From: a virus
Taxonomy: Duplodnaviria; Heunggongvirae; Uroviricota; Caudoviricetes
Direction: 5' to 3' (one strand)
IMG/VR virus record: IMGVR_UViG_2529292831_000017
Span: 1-40,514 of that record
DNA: 40,514 bases
The notes under the pieces are model-generated. The model was not told the DNA's origin. It ran no database searches and saw only the letters and a program-made list of their open reading frames with translations. Below are positions 698 to 40,514 of this stretch, piece by piece (within the stretch, counting starts at the first letter, position 1; each line of letters opens with the position of its first letter). The translations under genes and the position numbers were made by a program.

Positions 698-1060
698 GGG
701 GCTGATTCTGGATTCGACGGGATTTGCGAAACCCAAGGTGCATGCCGAGGGGCGGTTGGCCTCGTAAAAAGCCGCAAAAAATAGTCGCAAACGACGAAAA
801 CTACGCTTTAGCAGCTTAATAACCTGCTTAGAGCCCTCTCTCCCTAGCCTCCGCTCTTAGGACGGGGATCAAGAGAGGTCAAACCCAAAAGAGATCGCGT
901 GGAAGCCCTGCCTGGGGTTGAAGCGTTAAAACTTAATCAGGCTAGTTTGTTAGTGGCGTGTCCGTCCGCAGCTGGCAAGCGAATGTAAAGACTGACTAAG
1001 CATGTAGTACCGAGGATGTAGGAATTTCGGACGCGGGTTCAACTCCCGCCAGCTCCACCA
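698..1060 (+). ncRNA. ssrA: tmRNA (SsrA), 363 nt
   Basis: Begins GGGGCTGATTCTGGATTCGACGGG, contains the tag-reading-frame region, and ends in a tRNA-like 3' domain GGTTCAACTCCCGCCAGCTCCACCA; length and sequence match E. coli ssrA. Confidence 0.93.
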
Positions 1061-1063
1061 AAT
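1016..1063. repeat. attL: 48-bp direct repeat, the intact 3' end of ssrA
   Basis: ATGTAGGAATTTCGGACGCGGGTTCAACTCCCGCCAGCTCCACCAAAT is repeated exactly at 36431-36478. Confidence 0.85.
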
Positions 1064-1070
1064 AAATCAA

Positions 1071-1103
1071 GGGGTTACGTGAAAGCGTAGCCCCTTTTTC
1101 TTT
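1071..1103 (+). terminator. Rho-independent terminator downstream of ssrA
   Basis: GGGGTTACG / CGTAGCCCC stem followed by TTTTTCTTT, immediately 3' of the tmRNA end. Confidence 0.6.
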
Positions 1104-1115
1104 GGTAGTGGCGGC

Positions 1116-1160
1116 AAAATGGCGACAGACTTTTGCGTCCATCTTGCCTGTCGCCATCTT
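1116..1160. promoter_or_regulatory. 10-bp perfect inverted repeat upstream of the WYL/BRCT-like gene (candidate operator)
   Basis: ATGGCGACAG (1119-1128) and CTGTCGCCAT (1148-1157) separated by 19 bp; lies just upstream of the AAGAGG ribosome-binding site of the 1184 ORF. Confidence 0.3.
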
Positions 1161-9384: not shown

Positions 9385-11114
9385 CAGACCCCCTCCGCAA
9401 TAAACCCAATATTCCATCCACCGTTATCTCCGGTGATGCTCAGAGTAAAGCCAGTTGCAGTAATAGCTGTAATGGCGACACCCTCAACACTCCCACCGTG
9501 TGACGAACGGAAAACGGGGATCACGTACCAGCACTGACGGGCAAATGGTGTCGGAAAATTCACCTGATACTCTTTATTCACCACACCCGTTGCCCCGGAA
9601 AAATAACTGTTAAAAAACTGCTTCAGCACACCGCCAGTTATTCGGTGATAATTGCTGCCAAATGAAAATTCATCTTCACAAACACCCCGACGCCATAGTG
9701 TTGTATTGTCTTTAACCGTATCAGAGCCGCTGAAACGGTGATACATTTCCCCTGCTCCGGTGATGAAAATCTGCGCGCGTCTGTTCTTGTTATACGCAGC
9801 CTGAAAACCTGCACCATTCGATGGTACTTCATCTGCATTACCTGAATATGCAAGAAACTGTGAAACCTCACCCATTTCGTAGTTATTATTGCTACCGATT
9901 CCGTATGCTCCCTGTTGTAGAGCACTTTCAGCCTTATCAACCGTCGGTTTAAGTCCCAGATTCTGAATAAACAAAGTCGGGTCAGGAATATCAGCACCAT
10001 TGCGGTCCTTTGCCAGTCTCGCGCTGGCGTTGTCCATCGCAATTTTTACCGCTTTCAATGTCGCCGCAACATTTTCTGACACGCTGTTTACATCGTTCCC
10101 CAGTTGCACCATTCCTTTAACACTCACTGATGCTTCTGGATAATGTGCACTGGTGAACACCTGATTCCACGGTGTTTCATCATCGGCAATTTTCGATAAC
10201 ATGCTGAATCGACAGTACATCTTGCCATCATTAGCGACATAAATTTGTGCACGTCGATTGTCGTTGTAACAGGCCTGGAAACCAGCACCATGTGTTGGCA
10301 CTTCTGGATAGCCGACAGCTGTACCATAAGCAAAAAATTGCGATTTGGTTCCCATGGTTTTCAGATAAGCCAGGCCAATTCCATAATCTCCTGGCTGAAT
10401 CGCTGATGCAGCTTTATCAACAGTCGTTTTCAATCCCAGATTCTGAACAAACAGTGCCGGATTGGGAATATCAGAACCATTGCGGTCTTTTGCCAGTCTG
10501 GCGCTGGCATTATCCATCGCTATTTTCACTGCTTTTGGCGTTGCAGCGACTGTTTCATCATTGCTTTCCACACCGCTATACAGACGTACAAATCCCTTTT
10601 CTGTCAAAGACGCAGAAGGATGGCGGCGCGATTGCTCATGAATCTCTATTTGTTGATCTACATAATGACGGGTTGCCAGCACGACAGCAGGGTCGATTTT
10701 CAGGGTGATATTGTCCGTGCTGCTGGTAATCAGCACCATGCGCACGGTCTGGGTACGCCCGCTGCCTTCAGCCAGTTGCGGTTTATAGCTTTCCGGGCAG
10801 TTCCCCACGGCAATCAATGCCCCTGACTCATCAAACAGGCCCACTTCACGTATCCACCAACCGCCCTCGTTTTCAGGGATCACCTGTTCAGCAATAATCT
10901 GGCTGCTGTTCTGCGGGTCGATATAGAGCATATTCAGCGCAGCCCGGCGTTTCTCATTTACCAATGCCGTCTGCTTTGCGTCCGGCGTCGGCAATGCTCC
11001 GCCGCCATCGCCCACCGCCATATGGGTAATTTTTAGCGGCACACCGAGCGCGGCGGCGCTGGCAAGTTTCGCCGCGCCAATATCCGTCAGCAGGGTATAA
11101 AATTTTGTGCTCAT
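9384..11114 (-). CDS. H: Tail fibre protein H
   Basis: 576 aa; N-terminal 150 aa match the conserved P2 gpH baseplate-attachment domain (MSTKF...MAVGDGGG...ESYKPQLAEGSGR); C-terminal part divergent and internally repeated. Confidence 0.85.
   Translation of the reverse strand: MSTKFYTLLTDIGAAKLASAAALGVPLKITHMAVGDGGGALPTPDAKQTALVNEKRRAALNMLYIDPQNSSQIIAEQVIPENEGGWWIREVGLFDESGALIAVGNCPESYKPQLAEGSGRTQTVRMVLITSSTDNITLKIDPAVVLATRHYVDQQIEIHEQSRRHPSASLTEKGFVRLYSGVESNDETVAATPKAVKIAMDNASARLAKDRNGSDIPNPALFVQNLGLKTTVDKAASAIQPGDYGIGLAYLKTMGTKSQFFAYGTAVGYPEVPTHGAGFQACYNDNRRAQIYVANDGKMYCRFSMLSKIADDETPWNQVFTSAHYPEASVSVKGMVQLGNDVNSVSENVAATLKAVKIAMDNASARLAKDRNGADIPDPTLFIQNLGLKPTVDKAESALQQGAYGIGSNNNYEMGEVSQFLAYSGNADEVPSNGAGFQAAYNKNRRAQIFITGAGEMYHRFSGSDTVKDNTTLWRRGVCEDEFSFGSNYHRITGGVLKQFFNSYFSGATGVVNKEYQVNFPTPFARQCWYVIPVFRSSHGGSVEGVAITAITATGFTLSITGDNGGWNIGFIAEGV
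9726..10559. repeat. Intragenic tandem duplication in tail fibre gene H (two ~0.35-kb units about 480 bp apart)
   Basis: Protein segments aa ~186-304 and ~346-463 are near-identical in blocks (KAVKIAMDNASARLAKDRNG, LFxQNLGLK, HGAGFQAxYNxNRRAQI); DNA copies at ~10203-10559 and ~9726-10079. Confidence 0.6.
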
Positions 11115-24933: not shown

Positions 24934-24970
24934 ATTATAACCCGAGTACTATCAAAGTAATAAGCGCGCG

Positions 24971-24989
24971 CTCGTATCCCCGCCACGCC
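24971..24989. other. Prophage cos site (186-type cohesive-end sequence)
   Basis: Reverse complement reads GGCGTGGCGGGGATACGAG, homologous to the 19-nt P2/186 cohesive end, and the flanking GCCCGCTTT...GCGGTTT also matches the second cos at 40245-40263. Confidence 0.6.
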
Positions 24990-25032
24990 TGCCCGCTTTA
25001 TGTAGCGGTTTTCATGCGCCTGCATGACATAA

Positions 25033-32125: not shown

Positions 32126-32368
32126 TTACTTACCAACAATGACGCGGAAGTTGGAATGACCGAGGGATTCACGGACCTGATCAGTTTTGTACATCAGATA
32201 ACGCAGGCTTACGCGGCCTTTGTTTTTTTCTTTCTTGACCATGTACTTAGCGAGTTGGCCATGGTGAATTTTTTGGTAAACAGACCCACGGGAAATACCT
32301 TCCCATTCAGCGAATTCAGCAGGCGTAGCCATCTCTTTTGGTACACGAATTGAAATATCTGTGCTCAT
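32126..32368 (-). CDS. apl: Apl/Cox-like excisionase and switch regulator
   Basis: 80-aa basic protein, first gene of the lytic transcript, divergent from cI. Confidence 0.55.
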   Translation of the reverse strand: MSTDISIRVPKEMATPAEFAEWEGISRGSVYQKIHHGQLAKYMVKKEKNKGRVSLRYLMYKTDQVRESLGHSNFRVIVGK

Positions 32369-32475: not shown

Positions 32476-33120
32476 ATGGAGTATTTGATGATCAACATTC
32501 AGGCAGGTCCCAATACGGGAGGTAGAGAGGCGATCGAAAGATTGCTTAAGGCATATGGATTCAGCACCAAACAAGCACTAGCTGACCATTTAAAAATTTC
32601 AAAAAGTACTATGGCAAACAGAAACTTACGAGATAGCTTTCCTGCTGAGTGGGTCATCCAGTGTGCACTTGAAACAGGGGTTTCGCTGCTATGGCTAGCC
32701 ACAGGCCAGGGTGAAATGTTCACTTCAGAAGATCGAGAAAAAAATCCCGTAAACGAGTCAAACGTCACGCTTCGACCACTTTCCAAAATCGTTGCCCCCA
32801 GCATTAAGCAAGCCGAATTGAAGAATGGGGAGTTGAATAACGAAGGGGAAGTCTTGCTTGATAGCAGCTTACTGGACAGTGAGCCCGGCAATTCATTGTT
32901 TATAAAAACGTCTACTGACTGCTTTGTAGTGGATATATCTGTCAAACAGGTTAGCAATGGTTACTGGCTTGTCGATATTGATGGGGTGAAAAGCATCGTC
33001 AAGATTGCCCGAATACCAGGCAACAGAATTGTTGTTCACCAGGACGACTCATCCTTTGAGTGTTCTGTTGATGATGTGGAAGTTGTCGGGCGAGCCATTA
33101 AAGTAATCAAGAGTATTTAG
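32476..33120 (+). CDS. cI: CI-type immunity repressor
   Basis: N-terminal HTH-like segment (KQALADHLKISKSTMANRN) plus C-terminal domain; co-oriented with and directly upstream of int. Confidence 0.75.
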   Translation: MEYLMINIQAGPNTGGREAIERLLKAYGFSTKQALADHLKISKSTMANRNLRDSFPAEWVIQCALETGVSLLWLATGQGEMFTSEDREKNPVNESNVTLRPLSKIVAPSIKQAELKNGELNNEGEVLLDSSLLDSEPGNSLFIKTSTDCFVVDISVKQVSNGYWLVDIDGVKSIVKIARIPGNRIVVHQDDSSFECSVDDVEVVGRAIKVIKSI

Positions 33121-33122
33121 TC

Positions 33123-34142
33123 ATGACCATCAGGAAACAGCCGAACGGAAAATGGTTGTGTGAGTGCTACCCTAACGGGCGGGACGGCAAGCGCGTGCGC
33201 AAGCAATTTGCGACGAAAGGCGAAGCCGTAGCATTCGAAAACTTCACCATGGATGAAGTAAACAAAAAACCATGGCTGGGGGAAAAGGAAGATCGGCGGC
33301 ATCTGTCAGAAGTGATAGAGCAATGGCACTCACTATACGGGCAGACGCTCGCAGACCCCAAACGCCTGATGGCGAAACTTAGAATTATCTGTAATGGCCT
33401 GGGCGACCCTATCGCCTCAGAGCTGACCGCCGGAGATTTTACGAAATACCGTGAAGCGCGATTAAAAGGTGAAGTGCGAAATGAAGATGGCGCGCTTATG
33501 TCGCCAGTTAAGCCCCGAACGGTAAACCTCGAACAACGCAACCTATCATCAGTTTTTGGGACTCTGAAAAAACTGGGCCACTGGTCAGCCCCTAACCCGC
33601 TCGCCGGTCTGCCAACATTCAAAATCGCAGAGGGTGAACTGGCATTCCTGACCCCAGAAGAAATTAAACGCCTGCTGGATGCCTGCGCGGATTCTCAAAG
33701 CCCCAGCCTGCTGATGATTGCAAAAATATGCCTAGCTACTGGTGCGCGGTGGAGTGAAGCAGAAAACCTGCAGGGCCATCAGTTATCAAAATACCGCATC
33801 ACTTATACCAAGACGAAGGGCAAGAAAAACCGTACCGTGCCGATATCTCAGGATCTGTATGACGAACTCCCCAAGAACAGAGGGAAGTTATTCACCCCAT
33901 GCAGAAAAGCTTTTGAGCGTGCAGTTAAACGAGCTGGTATCGACTTGCCAGAGGGACAATGTACCCACGTCTTGCGCCATACATTCGCCAGTTACTTTAT
34001 GATGAATGGAGGGAATATTCTTGTACTAAGAGATATTTTAGGCCATTCAGATATAAAAATGACTATGGTCTATTCTCATTTTTCACCTGAGCATCTTGAA
34101 GATGCTGTAACAAAAAACCCTTTATCATCACTAGCGATTTAA
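33123..34142 (+). CDS. int: Tyrosine integrase (P2/186 Int-like)
   Basis: C-terminal catalytic region HVLRHTFASYFMMNGGNILVLRDILGHSDIKMTMVYSH with the R...HxxR...Y signature. Confidence 0.9.
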   Translation: MTIRKQPNGKWLCECYPNGRDGKRVRKQFATKGEAVAFENFTMDEVNKKPWLGEKEDRRHLSEVIEQWHSLYGQTLADPKRLMAKLRIICNGLGDPIASELTAGDFTKYREARLKGEVRNEDGALMSPVKPRTVNLEQRNLSSVFGTLKKLGHWSAPNPLAGLPTFKIAEGELAFLTPEEIKRLLDACADSQSPSLLMIAKICLATGARWSEAENLQGHQLSKYRITYTKTKGKKNRTVPISQDLYDELPKNRGKLFTPCRKAFERAVKRAGIDLPEGQCTHVLRHTFASYFMMNGGNILVLRDILGHSDIKMTMVYSHFSPEHLEDAVTKNPLSSLAI

Positions 34143-34146
34143 CATA

Positions 34147-35358
34147 ATGAAAATTAATAAAATTAGTACCACAGATTATGTAGCAATGCTTAATGAAATA
34201 TTATTCGAAATAGAGTCCAAACCACTATTAAAAGCTCCTTATCTCGCGGGAAATAATATCATTAAAGATTTTAACAATAGGGTTAAATGTTACCTAGAAG
34301 TCATAAACAAGATTTACAGTAAAAACCCTCACAACCTTGTAATTCGTGAAATAAAATCAAAAATAAAAAGCACAAAAACACTCTCGGATAAAATTTCAGA
34401 AACACTTAGATTATATTTAAACGGTAAAATCAAAGAATCTTACCTAACATTTGATCACGCTATCACCAAGACAAATATAAATGACCACATCTATAATATG
34501 TCCGTTCCATTAAGTGTGTTTTGTCATCCTGGAAAACCTCTATTTCGCGTAAGAAAAAGCGATCAAATAATAAAAGAAAGGCGTGATATCTTTCATATTC
34601 CTTTTTCTAAACGTTATCTTGTGAATGCACAAAGATACTCAGTCTCAGGCCTTCCTTGTTTATATTTAGGAACCTCTATTTTTGTATGTTGGCAAGAAAT
34701 GGAAAAACCAGACTTTGATAAATTATATGTATCTTCATTCATCACAGAGTCTGGTTCATCACATAGAATACTTAACCTTGGTTATAATTTGAGATCAGCA
34801 TTGAACATAAACACCTTAGCATGGCTGTTAGATAATGATACTGAAGGAACTATGAATAGGGTCATTTCGAACTTAATTTCCTGGCCACTTGTGTTAGCCT
34901 GTAATTATACAAAACAACATAAAAACTCTAGTTTCAACCCTGAGTACATAATCCCCAACCTTCTTATGCAATGGCTCAGCAGCAATGAAAATAAGGGCAT
35001 AGCCGGTATCGCTTATCGCACGACTAAAATTCTCAATCAAAAAGATAGTGATATTGGTATTAATATAATCATGCCACCTAAAATGGATAATATTTTGGAT
35101 TCTGGTTATGATTACTGCCCACACTTACTAAGTGTATTTAAATTTACCAAACCTGTTTCATGGCAAGTATTTAGCACTTTAAACGTCAAGACCGATGGTA
35201 TGGATGAAGATAGACTCATAATGGGAGGACCAACTCCAGCATCAGGTACAATTGAAGATTTTGATGAATCGCTAGTGGAATATTACAATAATACCTCATT
35301 CAAAAAAGTTCAATTGTTAATTCATAAAATGATGAAGCATGATTATCTTGAGCCTTAA
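34147..35358 (+). CDS. Accessory gene: 403-aa protein with RES-domain-like motifs
   Basis: About 30% GC; starts 4 bp after the int stop; LFRVRK...QRYSVSGLPCLYLGTSIFVCWQEM and later GIAGIAYRTTKI...GINIIMPP follow the RES pattern (conserved Arg, Glu, Ser/Thr). Confidence 0.5.
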   Translation: MKINKISTTDYVAMLNEILFEIESKPLLKAPYLAGNNIIKDFNNRVKCYLEVINKIYSKNPHNLVIREIKSKIKSTKTLSDKISETLRLYLNGKIKESYLTFDHAITKTNINDHIYNMSVPLSVFCHPGKPLFRVRKSDQIIKERRDIFHIPFSKRYLVNAQRYSVSGLPCLYLGTSIFVCWQEMEKPDFDKLYVSSFITESGSSHRILNLGYNLRSALNINTLAWLLDNDTEGTMNRVISNLISWPLVLACNYTKQHKNSSFNPEYIIPNLLMQWLSSNENKGIAGIAYRTTKILNQKDSDIGINIIMPPKMDNILDSGYDYCPHLLSVFKFTKPVSWQVFSTLNVKTDGMDEDRLIMGGPTPASGTIEDFDESLVEYYNNTSFKKVQLLIHKMMKHDYLEP

Positions 35359-35387
35359 GTGGCGGCGTTTTGGCGGTAGAGTATTAA
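35359..35387. repeat. 29-bp imperfect direct repeat, copy 1 (copy 2 at 36317-36345)
   Basis: GTGGCGGCGTTTTGGCGGTAGAGTATTAA versus CTGGCGGCACTTTGGCGGCAGAGCATTAA (24/29 identical); each ends in the stop codon region of a cargo gene. Confidence 0.6.
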
Positions 35388-35391
35388 GAGG

Positions 35392-36345
35392 ATGCAGTTA
35401 CAAAAAACCTCTAACTCCATTATAGAAATAGGAAGTGATCTGATGAATAACATCATCTATACAAACGAACAATATGAAATCGAAAATCTAAGTATAGCCC
35501 TGTATGCAATTTTCGATAAAATAAAAGAAAGGATTTCCATCGCCGAAGAATCTAACATTTACACTATCAGAGATGTTGGTCATAACTCGGAATCTCAAGT
35601 TTGCAAAAACACTTTTAATAAATTAACGCAATTTTTTGATTCAAACATTCTTTACATCCAAGACTGTGAAGTCTTAATTTCATATATAACAGAGTGCAGT
35701 TTGGAACTCTCTGTTATAGCGCAACAATTTTATGAAATACTCTGGAGCGATTTGTTAATAACCACACCAGACAAAGATTTTAAAGGGATTTTAGTAGCAA
35801 AATCGCCAAAAACAAGCTTGCTATTTTCTTTGTTAAGCATGCTATTTATAAAAATGAATAGTTTGTTTGACTACGTTACTAAAATCTCCTTTGAATTATT
35901 AAAGAGTAACTTCCCAATCTCTAAATACAAGAAATTAATATCCAAAAATAAATTATACGGCAACTATAAAGAATTAGTTTTTTCGACAACAACGGATACC
36001 ATATTTGAAAATAGCAATTTTATAAACACTGTAACATCATTACGAAATCATATAATTCACCACGGTTATATAGATGAGCACCCAAAGGTATATGTTGAAG
36101 TGGAAAATGGCATTGCATTTGGGAGATTTGTACTATTCCCCGATTTGAATGAGAGTGGAGGACTGGAAAATTGCATTAACAGAACTTTATTCTATTCAAA
36201 AGAAACAAAGATTGATGAAAAATTACCTGACTTAATTAAGGAATGCCAAATTAAAGTAATTAACTCGTTGAAGGTACTAATTAAAGATCATGAAGCATTA
36301 GAAGATTCAAGAAAGACTGGCGGCACTTTGGCGGCAGAGCATTAA
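35392..36345 (+). CDS. Accessory gene: 317-aa protein with an Rx4H (HEPN-like) motif
   Basis: About 30% GC; motif SLRNHIIHHG parallels SLRNALFHNG in the 13616 ORF; the ATG at 35443 has the better SD (AGGAAG, 7-nt spacer). Confidence 0.5.
   Translation: MQLQKTSNSIIEIGSDLMNNIIYTNEQYEIENLSIALYAIFDKIKERISIAEESNIYTIRDVGHNSESQVCKNTFNKLTQFFDSNILYIQDCEVLISYITECSLELSVIAQQFYEILWSDLLITTPDKDFKGILVAKSPKTSLLFSLLSMLFIKMNSLFDYVTKISFELLKSNFPISKYKKLISKNKLYGNYKELVFSTTTDTIFENSNFINTVTSLRNHIIHHGYIDEHPKVYVEVENGIAFGRFVLFPDLNESGGLENCINRTLFYSKETKIDEKLPDLIKECQIKVINSLKVLIKDHEALEDSRKTGGTLAAEH
36317..36345. repeat. 29-bp imperfect direct repeat, copy 2
   Basis: See copy 1; a related sequence AGTGGCGGCAAAATGGCGACAGAC also occurs near attL (1107-1130). 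Confidence 0.6.
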
Positions 36346-36430
36346 AAACGAGTAAAATGAACAAACACCGAGTAATACCAACCTACTGTTTTAAAAAGCA
36401 AATCATTGTTTTTGTTATAGTTAAGATAGT

Positions 36431-36478
36431 ATGTAGGAATTTCGGACGCGGGTTCAACTCCCGCCAGCTCCACCAAAT
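36431..36478. repeat. attR: second copy of the 48-bp ssrA 3' end
   Basis: Exact copy of 1016-1063; flanks diverge immediately outside the repeat. Confidence 0.85.
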
Positions 36479-36506
36479 CATGATCCGGATACGTCCGGTG
36501 AAGTGC

Positions 36507-36545
36507 AAAAAGCCCGCATGGCACAAGCCCTGCGGGCTTTTTTGT
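36507..36545. terminator. Bidirectional rho-independent terminator after attR
   Basis: AGCCCGCA...TGCGGGCT stem flanked by AAAA and TTTTTTG. Confidence 0.6.
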
Positions 36546-36588
36546 GTCTGTCGTTGTCCGAGAATATCCGGCTAAATCCGGTGATTAT

Positions 36589-36640
36589 TGGTATACGTTT
36601 AGGTATACGGTAGGATGTATACCTAAAAGCGTATACCAAT
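36589..36640. promoter_or_regulatory. Four GTATAC-containing repeats upstream of the P4-type integrase
   Basis: GTATAC at 36591, 36604, 36617 and 36631 (13-14 bp spacing); the outer pair forms the inverted repeat TTGGTATACG...CGTATACCAA; ends 20 bp before the int SD. Confidence 0.35.
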
Positions 36641-36659
36641 TCATGAAGGAGCGGCCACA

Positions 36660-37856
36660 GTGGCACGGACAACACGCCCCCTGACCAACACCGAAGTTCT
36701 GCGCGCTAAAGCGATGGAGAAGGATCTAACGCTGCATGATGGCGATGGCCTTTTCCTAATAGTGAAAACCAGCGGGAAAAAGCTCTGGCGCTTCCGTTAT
36801 CAACGTCCAGTGACAAAACAGCGGACAATGATGGGACTAGGTGCTTTCCCCGCTCTTTCACTTGCTGACGCCCGAGGGTTAAGAGCAGATTACCTTGCCT
36901 TGTTAGCCAACGGAATTGACCCACAAATTCAGGCCGAAGTTGCAAAGGAACAGCAGCAAATCGCTCTGGACAGTATTTTTTCAACGGTTGCCGCTAACTG
37001 GTTCCAGCTCAAAAGTAAAAGCGTTACCCCTGATTACGCAAAAGACATTTGGCGTTCACTGGAGAAAGATGTATTCCCTGTCATTGGTGAGATCCCCGTT
37101 CAGCAAATCAAAGCACGAACTTTGGTTGAAGCCCTTGAGCCAATCAAAGCTCGTGGGGCGCTTGAGACTGTACGTCGACTTGTGCAGCGCATCAACGAGA
37201 TAATGATTTATGCCGTAAACACTGGTCTGATTGATGCCAATCCAGCATCAGGTATTGGAATGGCCTTTGAGAAGCCCAAAAAACAAAACATGCCGACGCT
37301 GCGGCCAGAAGAATTGCCGAAGCTGATGCGTTCTTTGGTTATGTCTAATCTGTCTGTTCCGACGCGTTGTCTTATTGAGTGGCAACTTCTCACGCTTGTG
37401 CGCCCTTCTGAAGCATCCGGCACTCGATGGGCAGAAATCGATCTCGATGCCAAGCTCTGGACGATCCCAGCCGAACGGATGAAGGCCAAGCGTGAACATA
37501 TTGTTCCTCTATCTCCTCAGGCATTAGAGATTCTGGAAGTAATGAGGCCAATCAGTGCTCACCGTGAGCATGTTTTTCCAAGCAGAAATGATCCAAAGCA
37601 AGCGATGAATAGTCAGACTGCAAATGCCGCGTTAAAACGAATTGGATATGGAGGTAAATTAGTAGCTCATGGTTTGCGCTCAATAGCGAGTACTGCTATG
37701 AATGAAGCTGGTTTTAATTCAGATGTGATTGAAGCAGCACTCGCTCATAGTGATAAAAATGAAGTGCGAAAAGCTTATAATCGCGCGACATATATCAATG
37801 CTAGAAAAGAAATTATGAATTGGTGGGGAAATTGCATCAATAAAAGTAAGATCTAA
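36660..37856 (+). CDS. P4-type tyrosine integrase (CP4-57 IntA-like)
   Basis: 398 aa, GTG start with SD AAGGAG; N-terminal arm-binding-type domain plus catalytic region (HGLRSIAST...LAHSD...VRKAYNRATY); P4-family integrases typically target ssrA and tRNA genes. Confidence 0.9.
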   Translation: MARTTRPLTNTEVLRAKAMEKDLTLHDGDGLFLIVKTSGKKLWRFRYQRPVTKQRTMMGLGAFPALSLADARGLRADYLALLANGIDPQIQAEVAKEQQQIALDSIFSTVAANWFQLKSKSVTPDYAKDIWRSLEKDVFPVIGEIPVQQIKARTLVEALEPIKARGALETVRRLVQRINEIMIYAVNTGLIDANPASGIGMAFEKPKKQNMPTLRPEELPKLMRSLVMSNLSVPTRCLIEWQLLTLVRPSEASGTRWAEIDLDAKLWTIPAERMKAKREHIVPLSPQALEILEVMRPISAHREHVFPSRNDPKQAMNSQTANAALKRIGYGGKLVAHGLRSIASTAMNEAGFNSDVIEAALAHSDKNEVRKAYNRATYINARKEIMNWWGNCINKSKI

Positions 37857-37878
37857 AATTAGATCTTACTTTCATCAA

Positions 37879-38787
37879 TTAGATCATGGTTGCTATGCGT
37901 TCTTTTAAATAACCAAATTGCGTGTAGCCTTCATTCTTTTTAATTAAACTTGCTATTTGAGACTCGTTATAGCTACCTTCAAATCCATAAAGACAGAGCT
38001 CATCATTCCCACTGTAACAAAACTGACATTTATCTACCTCATCATGCAGACATTTTGTTTTCAACCCTTTAATTTCACCAATTAACATTCGGCAGAATTC
38101 GCCAATTAACCACTTACCTTTACATATATTAAGTAAACCTGCTAAGTCTTTGCTTACCCCCATCTGAATAGCAAATTCATCAAGTTCTTTTTCTCGCTCA
38201 ACAATTTTTTCAAAAGCGCCTATATTTTTCAAGTGTTGAACGCTCATCTTATATGATGCTAGAGATTCATAATCTTTCACGCAAGCTTTTTTCAAGCACT
38301 CTAAAGACATATAATACAACGACATTAGAGCCTCTGCTAAATTTTCATAGAGCATCTCAATTAACTCACTGGTTAGCAATTTTGGCTGTATTCTTGTACA
38401 TTGTTCAATAACACATTTTATTGCCTGCCGTGTGATAAAATGGCTTTCCATCGAGTACCATCTCAGCACAAAAACGGCTGAATTATTAACAACTTCACCT
38501 CGGTAGTAGCGAGCATCTCGATCTATAATGCCTAAAATGTAGTGCCCTAAATCCCCCTCATACTCAAGTTCAAGTAATGCCTCAATAAAGTCAATTACAC
38601 CTCTATTACCTTCACTCATATCCTTGAAATTCTGAACAGCAACCACCTCGAAATATTTATCAAGCTGTTGACAAATGCCTTCATAAATTGAAATGTCATC
38701 GACGCCTTCAACGACTAACATTGGCGTTTCAGACATAATTGCCTCATTCAATATTTCATCATACTCCATACTCAGCCAATCGTTCAT
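37879..38787 (-). CDS. ariB: TOPRIM/DUF4435-like nuclease, PARIS AriB-like (302 aa)
   Basis: N-terminal LVVEGVDD glutamate motif and ILGIIDRDARYY DxD motif; AT-rich; 4-bp overlap with the upstream ATPase gene. Confidence 0.55.
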   Translation of the reverse strand: MNDWLSMEYDEILNEAIMSETPMLVVEGVDDISIYEGICQQLDKYFEVVAVQNFKDMSEGNRGVIDFIEALLELEYEGDLGHYILGIIDRDARYYRGEVVNNSAVFVLRWYSMESHFITRQAIKCVIEQCTRIQPKLLTSELIEMLYENLAEALMSLYYMSLECLKKACVKDYESLASYKMSVQHLKNIGAFEKIVEREKELDEFAIQMGVSKDLAGLLNICKGKWLIGEFCRMLIGEIKGLKTKCLHDEVDKCQFCYSGNDELCLYGFEGSYNESQIASLIKKNEGYTQFGYLKERIATMI

Positions 38788-40079
38788 TTCGAATTATTCT
38801 CAATTTTAACCGGTGCAAGTTTAACCAGACTGTTGGGTGACTTCTTAGATATGATAGGGCTATGAGAGGCCACGATTATTTGTGTTTCTGGCACTAATTC
38901 CTGTAGAAGACTCAGCAATGTACGTTGCCATTTGATATTAAGAGAAATTTCTGGCTCATCAATAAGTAGAATATCTCTTCCACGACCTGCAATTATAACT
39001 ATTGATAGAAAGGTAAGAATATGCCTTTCACCACTTGATAATGCTCCGATGGATAAATGAGAGTCTTCAGTTTCAACATATATCTCATGCTTATTAATAA
39101 TTAACTTTTTATCTCCAACCAAGAAGGAGTTAAAGACATCAACCAAGATGTTAATGGAACTTAAAAGTTGTTTCTCAACCTTTAATTCACGAGTCATATT
39201 CATGACTAACTTTCTCAACAGTTGGTTTTCAAGTATTTTATTAACATCAGATTCACTTTGTATTGATGATAAAATATTAACAACATGATTTTTAAAATTA
39301 TTCTCAAAACCATCATCCAACGCTTCAATAATCCTCTCTTTATTTTTATATACATCACTCTCAAAATTCGAAGGCATCACGATATCTTCAGAAGTTTTCT
39401 TTGCATCCACTGCTATGGCCAACGTATCAAACAACGCATTTTGAATTCTTTCAGTAGCTATATTCCTTGCTAATAGATAACGTTCAACAAGCATATTCTC
39501 GATATTACTCATTTTTATATTTTGAAGAAAAACATGTTTTGCATCTAAATCCATATCATCTTTTTTATTTCTCCTCCTGTTGTTTTGATATCTCTTTAGA
39601 AACATTGCCATCCTTTCACTAAACAAATGAATATCTGTCTTCGCAAATAAAGAGCGATATTCTGGATGACCAAGAAATCTCAAAATATCCACTGGTTCAA
39701 CTTTCAATGACTCTGATGTTACGCCCCTCTCCACACCAAGAGATAATGATGTACAATCAGCTAATTCAGAATCGACAAGATCGCTCCAGTCGTATGAGTC
39801 TTTAATAATCCCCTCTTCTCCCTCCTCTTGAATCTGTCTTACTGGTACAAACTCTCTTTCTCCATTATTTTTCTCATAATAGATTTCAACATACATTACA
39901 TTTTCGCTTGCAAGCGACTCATCATCACGTTTAAGGATAGAATGTATTAATTTCAAAAATGTAGTTTTACCGCAACCATTATCACCATAAATAACAGATA
40001 TGTCACCATCAGCAAATTCAACATAAGCTGCTCTGTTAATTGATTGGAAGCCTGCAATGTATATAGATAATAGCTTCAT
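38784..40079 (-). CDS. ariA: ABC-type ATPase, PARIS AriA-like (431 aa)
   Basis: Walker A GDNGCGKTT, ABC signature LSSGERHIL, Walker B ILLIDEPE, H-loop ASHSP; AT-rich. Confidence 0.6.
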   Translation of the reverse strand: MKLLSIYIAGFQSINRAAYVEFADGDISVIYGDNGCGKTTFLKLIHSILKRDDESLASENVMYVEIYYEKNNGEREFVPVRQIQEEGEEGIIKDSYDWSDLVDSELADCTSLSLGVERGVTSESLKVEPVDILRFLGHPEYRSLFAKTDIHLFSERMAMFLKRYQNNRRRNKKDDMDLDAKHVFLQNIKMSNIENMLVERYLLARNIATERIQNALFDTLAIAVDAKKTSEDIVMPSNFESDVYKNKERIIEALDDGFENNFKNHVVNILSSIQSESDVNKILENQLLRKLVMNMTRELKVEKQLLSSINILVDVFNSFLVGDKKLIINKHEIYVETEDSHLSIGALSSGERHILTFLSIVIIAGRGRDILLIDEPEISLNIKWQRTLLSLLQELVPETQIIVASHSPIISKKSPNSLVKLAPVKIENNSK

Positions 40080-40244
40080 TACATCTCCATTATTGCATCA
40101 AGGGTTTAGTTTTAAGAAAATGCCCGAGAAGTTTATTACAACTAACCATATGATTCTACAACCATAAAGACTTTAACTTTTTTCTCATCAATCACAAGTC
40201 CTTGAAGTGAAAATTTATAATTATAAATTCTTTGCCTACGCGCA

Positions 40245-40263
40245 GTGCTTTCCCCGCCTCGCC
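40245..40263. other. P2/P4-type cos site
   Basis: Reverse complement is GGCGAGGCGGGGAAAGCAC, matching (from recollection) the 19-nt P2/P4 cohesive end, in a GC-rich non-coding stretch. Confidence 0.6.
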
Positions 40264-40514
40264 CGCCCGCTTTGCGGGGCGGTTTCAATGCAGTTGCACT
40301 GACACGCTCAGGCCGCGCCGGGAATGGCGCGGTCTGCAGAAAATGAGGCAGGAAAACGCATGCAAAGCCATGCACCTTATCGATGCATGGCTTTTTTCAG
40401 TAAAAACGGGCGGATTTTCGGGGAATTTTACACAGACTGATGTGATGCCAGTTGCGCACTTTTACGCGAAAAAATCATGTTCTGCGCAGGAGTGAATTTT
40501 TCACGGCTGTCATC

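Follow-up and report, generated by a model that had tools for sequence, protein, structure and literature searches.

Integrase arm-type sites and a probable module-stacking scar at the cargo genes of a Fels-2-like prophage in ssrA

Heterobivalent tyrosine integrases, such as that of phage lambda, recognise short arm repeats through their N-terminal domain, and for this group of enzymes the arm sites are places of binding and not of cleavage or strand exchange. The att region described here resembles lambda attP (P1, P2 and P'1-P'3) in that short arm repeats flank the core for a heterobivalent Int, whilst the sequences of the repeats are unrelated and lambda is without a cargo slot between int and attP.

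For coliphage 186 the GenBank record lists predicted Int arm-type recognition sequences with the consensus YAYCGCCAYTY (that is, RARTGGCGRTR), and in the 186 sequence the int side of the core carries TGGCGAT, TGGCGGT and TGGCGAA in 11-bp steps. On the far side are two direct heptamers and one inverted, as in the P' arm of the window, by which is meant the whole stretch of 40,514 nucleotides that was analysed. [quoted passage not shown] The locus in the window shares with 186 the TGGCGR core, the 11-bp tandem spacing, the gene order cI-int-attP and the layout of the repeats, which are all direct on the int side whilst beyond the core there are two direct and one inverted. It differs in that the integration site is ssrA and not the tRNA-Ile gene, the heptamer is TGGCGRC(A) and not TGGCGRT, there are two P-arm heptamers where 186 has three, and only here is there an additional copy, non-canonical and 1 kb away from the core.

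Phage P2 also belongs to the Peduoviridae and its attP (tgTGGaCa) has two direct repeats per arm as well, but both the consensus and the Int specificity residues are different, being Y/D/R in P2-type integrases and W11, E14 and Y16 in the window. The int-att accessory hotspot of P2-like phages is likewise comparable, with variable AT-rich cargo between conserved flanks. The published description of that hotspot is statistical (3% of P2 systems), and the borders at the int KNPL codons and the outer heptamer, as well as the stacking scars reported below, are absent from the text consulted. According to a 2026 preprint, the recombination process at such phage defence hotspots is still unresolved.

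The prophage, its integrase and the repeated motif

The prophage of the window is Fels-2-like (186-type), sits in ssrA and is bounded by the two copies of a 51-bp repeat. At the left end of the window are smpB and then ssrA, and the order at the right end is cI (32476-33120), int (33123-34142), two AT-rich ORFs and attR. The cI/int region has 83% nucleotide identity to Salmonella phage Fels-2, and the regulatory genes, which are of 186 type, include one for an Apl/Cox homologue (32126-32368). The right-end region is 100% identical in E. coli strain 504237, and in the window a further element occupies the regenerated end of ssrA. The features that matter for what follows are these:

698-1060, plus strand: ssrA (tmRNA, ARAGORN), the 3' end of which is the attB/core used by the prophage
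1013-1063, plus strand: attL copy of the 51-bp att core repeat (repeat search, 98% identical to 36428-36478)
1069-1096, plus strand: hairpin resembling a terminator, with the core on one side and the P' arm sites on the other; the 186 record has a predicted lysogenic-operon terminator at the equivalent place
1107-1130, plus strand: predicted P' arm, two direct heptamers TGGCGGC (1109-1115) and TGGCGAC (1120-1126) 11 bp apart, found by pattern match, offset as in relatives
1150-1156, minus strand: third P' arm-type heptamer, TGGCGAC, inverted, matching the inverted member of the 186 P' arm
33123-34142, plus strand: gene for a tyrosine integrase of the 186/Fels-2 type (Pfam Int_N and Phage_integrase; 83% nucleotide identity to the Fels-2 region)
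34098-34120, plus strand: last conserved int block, GAAGATGCTGTAACAAAAAACCC, coding for EDAVTKNP, the left border of the variable region in the junction comparison
34147-35358, plus strand: cargo gene 1, 403 aa, with homologues at the same position in 39 loci
35359-35387, plus strand: copy 1 of the motif, probable P arm relic of a first module, cut after ATTAA and collinear with the cargo 1-arm junction of contig L053
35388-35425, plus strand: what is probably left of a second int, its final ~13 codons (GAG GAT GCA GTT ACA AAA AAC ..., or EDAVTKN..), 19/23 to the int 3' block
35443-36345, plus strand: cargo gene 2, 300 aa from its likely start, with AGGAAG 7 nt upstream and a 300-aa call in the database and in RefSeq
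36317-36345, plus strand: copy 2 of the motif, predicted P arm in the functional position, with direct heptamers at 36318-36324 and 36329-36335, a perfect consensus and the top weight matrix (PWM) score of 52.5
36346-36427, plus strand: remainder of the P arm between arm sites and core, kept in relatives from 36313-36318 onward
36428-36478, plus strand: attR copy of the att core repeat (repeat search)

A preliminary description of this DNA had drawn attention to two 29-mers with 24/29 identical positions, and direct comparison of 35359-35387 with 36317-36345 agrees, the two differing at 5/29. A 28-nt degenerate pattern fitting both has these two matches in the window and 0 in 100 shuffles, and the pattern TGGCGGC-N4-TGGCGR with at most one mismatch has exactly three sites in the window (1109, 35360 and 36318) where 0.14 are expected; a chance origin is excluded by these counts. 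Both copies and the stretch near attL also form one family in an independent repeat search of the window. The first base of copy 1 is the base right after the TAA of the 403-aa ORF, and copy 2 makes up the final nine codons and stop of the ORF ending at 36345, so the ORF coordinates agree with the further statement that each copy stands at the 3' end of a cargo gene and that copy 2 ends a 317-aa ORF. The third related stretch that had been placed just inside attL was likewise found, at 1107-1130, on the prophage side of the core repeat (1013-1063) and 46 bp from it.

The motif has the form of tandem TGGCGRC(A) heptamers 11 bp apart, which is one helical turn, and copies 1 and 2 are direct heptamer pairs. 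In all three copies the TGGCGRC heptamers contain the TGGCGR consensus core, with C as the next base here and T in the 186 consensus. Heptamers occur on both arms with the same 11-bp spacing, at 36318 and 36329 on P and at 1109 and 1120 on P', with the inverted one at 1150. The Int N-terminus, MTIRKQPNGKWLCECY, has W11, E14 and Y16 spaced like the 186-type discriminator residues, as judged by inspection only. Copy 2 is ~110 bp before the attR core and its first heptamer 132 bp before GGGTTCAACTCC; given the match to the consensus and an offset from the core that is the same as in relatives, copy 2 and the attL stretch would be the ordinary P and P' arms. The motif therefore belongs to a class of element that is already known, being arm sites of a 186-type integrase where these are expected. 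On the evidence of the sequence, it is likely that copy 2 is the normal P arm, the attL stretch the normal P' arm and copy 1 a stacking scar.

By homology Int would bind at copy 2 and at the P' heptamers, the 186 sites being themselves predicted, and as in other heterobivalent integrases its N-terminal domain would hold the arm sites whilst the catalytic domains act on the core. By analogy with the 186 annotation, IHF and Apl sites would be located in the remainder of the P arm. The hairpin at 1069-1096 would, once the phage is circular, end the cI-int-cargo transcript. Between int and attR no terminator-like site was found, the first on that strand being the ssrA terminator at 36525-36539, so that in the lysogen the cargo probably shares a transcript with cI and int.

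Arm position and the cargo slot across relatives

Int-att junctions were sampled from annotated phages, complete E. coli genomes, the GTDB one-genome-per-species set and IMG/VR. In 84/84 arms (58 distinct sequences) the first heptamer precedes GGGTTCAACTCC by exactly 132 bp, and in the same sample the gap from the int stop to the arm runs from 4 to 2372 nt. Fels-2 and SEN8 have nothing between int and att; in these phages ATGGCGGCATTTTGGCGGCAGGGCATTAAAAACG starts 4 nt after the int stop, the core is ~110 bp beyond the arm and past the core stands GTGGCGGCAAAATGGCGACAG. The P' heptamers of SEN8 and Cartapus are at the same offset as those of the window, +83 from the core anchor. Across the 58 distinct arms the consensus is TGGCGRCA-NTT-TGGCGRCA-GAGCATTAAAAAC, with heptamer positions 98-100% conserved, and similarity between phages ends abruptly left of the first TGGCG. 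When junctions with and without cargo are aligned the motif is thus at a fixed distance from the core either way, and this is the distance seen for copy 2 and for the attL copy but not for copy 1, which is 1.08 kb off, in this element only. It had been proposed that the repeats are integrase arm sites displaced by cargo; they do conform to the 186-type arm consensus, but the displacement falls away, as copy 2 and the attL copy have the offsets of the cargo-free Fels-2 and SEN8, and the 84 relatives agree.

The interval from int to the outer heptamer is hypervariable, with 56 distinct versions of which 10 are empty, 42 are about one gene in size and 4 are at least 1.7 kb. Unrelated genes alternate there between conserved flanks, as is characteristic of an accessory or defence hotspot. 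The left border of the slot is inside int, just past the EDAVTKNPL codons, and the right border is the first (outer) arm heptamer. All cargo-free phages have an Int C-terminal tail of HNLNW(K/N/S)R, and at least 35 different tails are found in cargo-bearing ones. The stretch between the int stop and the outermost P-arm heptamer would be the only part of this genome end in which additional DNA is tolerated, and as a slot it would lie at the 3' end of the cI-int lysogenic transcript.

The commonest occupant of the slot is the cargo 1 family (39 loci, 37-95% identity), some homologues of which are named RES-domain proteins by some sources, and other occupants in relatives include an annotated anti-phage dCTP deaminase. 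Neither Pfam (E up to 10) nor PADLOC gave a match for cargo 1, cargo 2 or three such proteins from relatives. Cargo 2 has an invariant R-x4-H motif and an unspecific helical-bundle fold, and a tblastn search with it against 50,697 phage records gave no match. Its homologues are in Klebsiella and Enterobacter prophages with the order cI-int-cargo2-arm-core (int-cargo2 in L133, L136 and L137). The 317-aa reading of cargo 2, from 35392, begins within the int remnant; the true start is most likely 35443, as the spacing between int and cargo 2 in the Klebsiella and Enterobacter prophages indicates.

Of the four long regions, that of the window and that of Citrobacter sp. FP75 (L012) each have two genes on the same strand, and the other two have one long reverse-strand dCTP deaminase gene. 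A weight matrix built from functional arms was run over the cargo regions, and the best internal score is 32.1 bits in the window, 11.1 bits in L012 and at most -2.5 in the other 54. An internal arm relic is therefore seen in 2/56 distinct cargo regions.

Two junctions with a stacked cargo gene

A single-cargo counterpart of the window is provided by the IMG/VR contig L053, with an int of 93% nucleotide identity and a cargo 1 of 94% at the nucleotide and 95% at the amino acid level. In L053 cargo 1 is followed directly by GTGGCGGCATTATGGCGGCAGAGCATTAAAAATG and the core, without cargo 2. Collinearity between the window and L053 extends over cargo 1 and into the arm as far as ATTAA; from 35388 the window instead has GAGGATGCAGTTACAAAAAACC, which agrees at 19/23 positions with the conserved block at the end of int and reads EDAVTKN in frame. 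With one lost C restored the remnant would read EDAVTKNPLTPL, with a stop at 35423-35425, and then come AGGAAG and the ATG at 35443. From the collinearity with L053 and the int remnant it follows, at the level of sequence, that the right end of the window is [int-cargo1-arm*][int 3' remnant-cargo2-arm-core], in which two modules of one cargo gene each follow one another and the first of them ends in a truncated arm, copy 1.

Copy 1 has the appearance of a relic in decay, with a G where 57/58 functional arms have A and a T where 57/58 have C. Its PWM score is 31.4, as compared with a median of 46.8 and a minimum of 30.2 for functional arms, and it may still bind Int to some extent. It differs from the L053 arm at 4/29 positions against a background of 5.8%, which is not a significantly faster divergence than that of its neighbourhood (P = 0.08). 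Scars of successive insertions had been among the suggestions made for these repeats, and this holds for copy 1, a truncated first-module arm joined to an int 3' remnant, but not for copy 2 and the attL copy, which are ordinary arm sites at their normal places. A search of IMG/VR for a heptamer followed by the int 3' block within 6-30 nt returned only the same element (L139), and in JGI metagenomes the same pattern gave one unrelated chance match, in a contig with iteron-like repeats (L140).

The second case is that of Citrobacter sp. FP75, where int is followed by a gene for a 375-aa membrane-type protein, the last codons of which run into a degenerate arm, TGGCGGCAAAGCGGCTGCAGA. After this arm come TCATTTGGAATGATGCTGTCACGAAAAATCCGTTATATTCATTAAATTATTC..., a gene of the cargo 1 family, a perfect arm and the core. 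From GATCATTTGGAA on the sequence is nearly identical to the int-cargo junction of three other loci (L077, L082 and L088), the int of which ends ...KNPLYSLNYSKG. The relic in Citrobacter has decayed much further than copy 1, and since both the modules and the exact crossover point differ, the two events would be separate. At both joints the arm tail CAGAGCATTAAAA aligns with the int 3' end, CTGAnCATyTnGAA, in one register (GAnCAT); the short match is imperfect, about 8-10/13, and the mechanism proposed here rests on these two junctions.

In outline, an ancestral int-cargo1-arm-core phage would have lost its P arm beyond ATTAA, and what was left of the arm would have been joined to the terminal ~38 nt of int from a second phage, int-cargo2-arm-core. 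The likely event would be illegitimate short-homology recombination between two related genomes, and a simple route to it may be a deletion within tandem prophages at ssrA, which are conceivable because integration recreates the site. Two single-gene modules in series would be the outcome, with copy 1 left as a decaying scar. In another locus (L124) there is a deletion joint just past attR, from a P4-type int to a Fels-2-type int 3' remnant. One might instead suppose that a circular cargo module was inserted into the arm, but the P arm after copy 2 is visibly unlike that of L053 (alignment by eye), the presumed type of parent, and this is better fitted by a single joint with a second phage.

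Other readings and what the junctions mean

It would seem unlikely that copy 1 has been kept because it is functional, be it as an extra Int site that alters integration or excision or as a repeat for the precise shedding of cargo 2. Both of its TGGCGG cores are intact and its PWM score is within the functional range. Furthermore the stacked prophage spreads, being present at 99.8-100% identity in 11/5426 complete E. coli genomes with three different downstream neighbours, from which it can be said that it still moves and that copy 1 is no bar to this. Copy 1 is, however, 1.08 kb from the core and altered at the two positions that are conserved in 57/58 working arms, the analogous relic in Citrobacter is far more decayed, and among the 5426 complete E. 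coli genomes there are 0 with this cargo 1 allele and without cargo 2, so that no shedding products are seen.

Somewhat less likely still is that the heptamers are sites for the excisionase Apl/Cox (a recombination directionality factor) and not for Int, although in 186 five direct repeats of the P arm are bound by Apl and this prophage has a gene for a homologue. The Apl sites of 186 have the Int arm sites on one side and the core on the other and are confined to the int side, whereas the TGGCGR heptamers are on both arms, are annotated as Int arm-type in 186 and match the published 186-type consensus.

The preliminary description had also raised the possibility of cassette-exchange sites, and we consider it very improbable that the repeats are integron attC-like sites where cargo is inserted or exchanged by a recombinase. 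There is a superficial likeness to integron arrays in that serial cargo genes are each followed by a related short site, and such a reading would be in keeping with the position of each copy at the 3' end of a cargo gene, the hypervariability of the int-att interval and the view of the 2026 preprint on recombination at these hotspots. Unlike in attC arrays, however, there is no site before the first gene, so that cargo 1 is unbracketed, and no hairpin-forming inverted repeats are present in the copies. The 42 regions of one-gene size have the canonical arm alone at its fixed core distance, the motif is kept in cargo-free phages, and stacking was seen in two cases among 56 regions, in both of which the internal copy is truncated, degenerate and fused to an int remnant, pointing to ordinary illegitimate joints. 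Finally, arm sites of heterobivalent integrases are bound and not cleaved, and so would not be points of strand exchange.

That the similarity reflects a C-terminal peptide GGxLAxE- shared by the cargo proteins, now or in the past, can be dismissed: one frame of both copies does read GG(V/T)LA(V/A)E(Y/H) and a stop, and cargo 2 and one homologue end ...AAEH, but the GGTLAAEH tail is absent from 7/8 homologues of cargo 2, so that in cargo 2 itself it would be read-through into the arm, copy 1 is beyond the stop codon of cargo 1, and the same DNA directly follows int in cargo-free phages.

With the arm-site reading in place, one could speculate that the match between the arm tail GAGCATTAA and the int sequence GAnCATyTA is a recurrent docking point which stacks, and perhaps sheds, single-gene defence modules in Fels-2/186-like phages without a dedicated recombinase, as a primitive cassette array, and that the extra arm copy, being retained, might still bind Int and affect excision; we regard this as a rather unlikely extension.

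What is new here is modest, namely the exact borders of the slot and two independent arm/int 3' joints in the same short-homology register. An apparent candidate for a cassette site turns out to have the anatomy of an ordinary attP, and in Fels-2/186-like phages the borders of the cargo slot are now fixed precisely, at the KNPL codons of int on one side and at the outer arm heptamer on the other. In the annotation of prophages an internal arm relic together with an int 3' remnant can be used as a practical marker that flags stacked modules. From the two junctions it can be seen how one cargo gene may come to stand behind another, and the scars provide small but direct evidence for short-homology joints between related phages.

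The integrase 3' end as the border of the cargo slot

When the integrase 3' ends of all loci are considered together with that of the window (34121-34142), it can be seen that in cargo-bearing phages the final 4-12 codons of int, the 186/Fels-2-type tyrosine integrase gene, are hypervariable after KNPL, with at least 35 different tails, whereas in cargo-free phages the tail is uniform, HNLNW(K/N/S)R, and the arm-type site begins 4 nt past the stop codon. As the tails are variable with cargo and uniform without it, the end of the integrase ORF belongs to the cargo modules.

The slot, the hypervariable interval between the int 3' end and the outer P-arm heptamer, can be disturbed in another way, by insertion of an IS element into the int 3' end, as in E. 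coli EC96 (L005, 2697-3925), where the Fels-2-type int is interrupted by the IS5-family element ISKpn26 and the EDAVTKNPL block of last conserved codons has been moved ~1.1 kb downstream.

Tandem elements at ssrA

The regenerated end of ssrA is occupied in the window by a second integrated element (36660-40079), which follows attR immediately and has:

P4-type integrase, with Arm-DNA-bind_3, Phage_int_M and Phage_integrase domains
DUF4435-type AriB and AriA ATPase, after the integrase, minus strand

The AriB and AriA genes are a PARIS-like defence pair. Given the position of the P4-type integrase element directly after attR, the tandem at ssrA pairs a prophage of helper type with a P4-like element, an arrangement to be compared with that in another locus, L007.

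The prophage carrying both cargo genes in series is 99.8-100% identical between the window and E. coli 4012, 1-62 and GF47 (L143-L145), and three different downstream neighbours are found next to it (window 36480-37900 compared with L143-L145):

P4-type integrase with PARIS, in the window
a different P4-type integrase with a DEAD/DEAH helicase, among L143-L145
ypjA directly, among L143-L145

This implies either independent integrations or a turnover of the adjacent island.

At 9141-10028 of L124, past the attR core of a further Fels-2-like prophage, approximately the first 85 codons of a P4-type integrase are joined, with the frame kept, to an int 3' remnant of the Fels-2 type that ends ..QEDAVTKNPLTNLNYTRSS* and is followed by another cargo ORF. 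The fusion is a deletion joint inside a tandem array; here too the break falls at the EDAV block.

Heptamers and other repeats in the window

Single copies of the arm heptamer TGGCGRC number 31 in the whole window, against 11.9 +/- 3.5 expected; most are dispersed through coding DNA and probably stem from codon or GC composition, not Int sites. Two further repeats were observed, a 239-nt direct repeat of 71% identity in the prophage structural region (9895-10133 and 10375-10613, 480 bp apart) and a 60-nt stretch, 73% identical, that the prophage interior (24965-25024) has in common with the extreme right of the window (40239-40298).

The cargo genes

In the stretch 35392-35445 the longest ORF for cargo 2, the second gene in the series, has its start at 35392, within the int 3' remnant in another frame. 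The likely start is the ATG at 35443; AGGAAG lies 7 nt upstream, and RefSeq and the protein database call the same start (300 aa).

By far the most frequent occupant of the int-att slot is the family of cargo 1 (~400 aa; window 34147-35358 and 39 related loci), labelled 'RES domain' in some sources and with no match in Pfam or PADLOC. Its members are highly divergent (37-95% identity), and this divergence suggests an accessory gene that evolves fast and is nearly resident in Fels-2-like phages.
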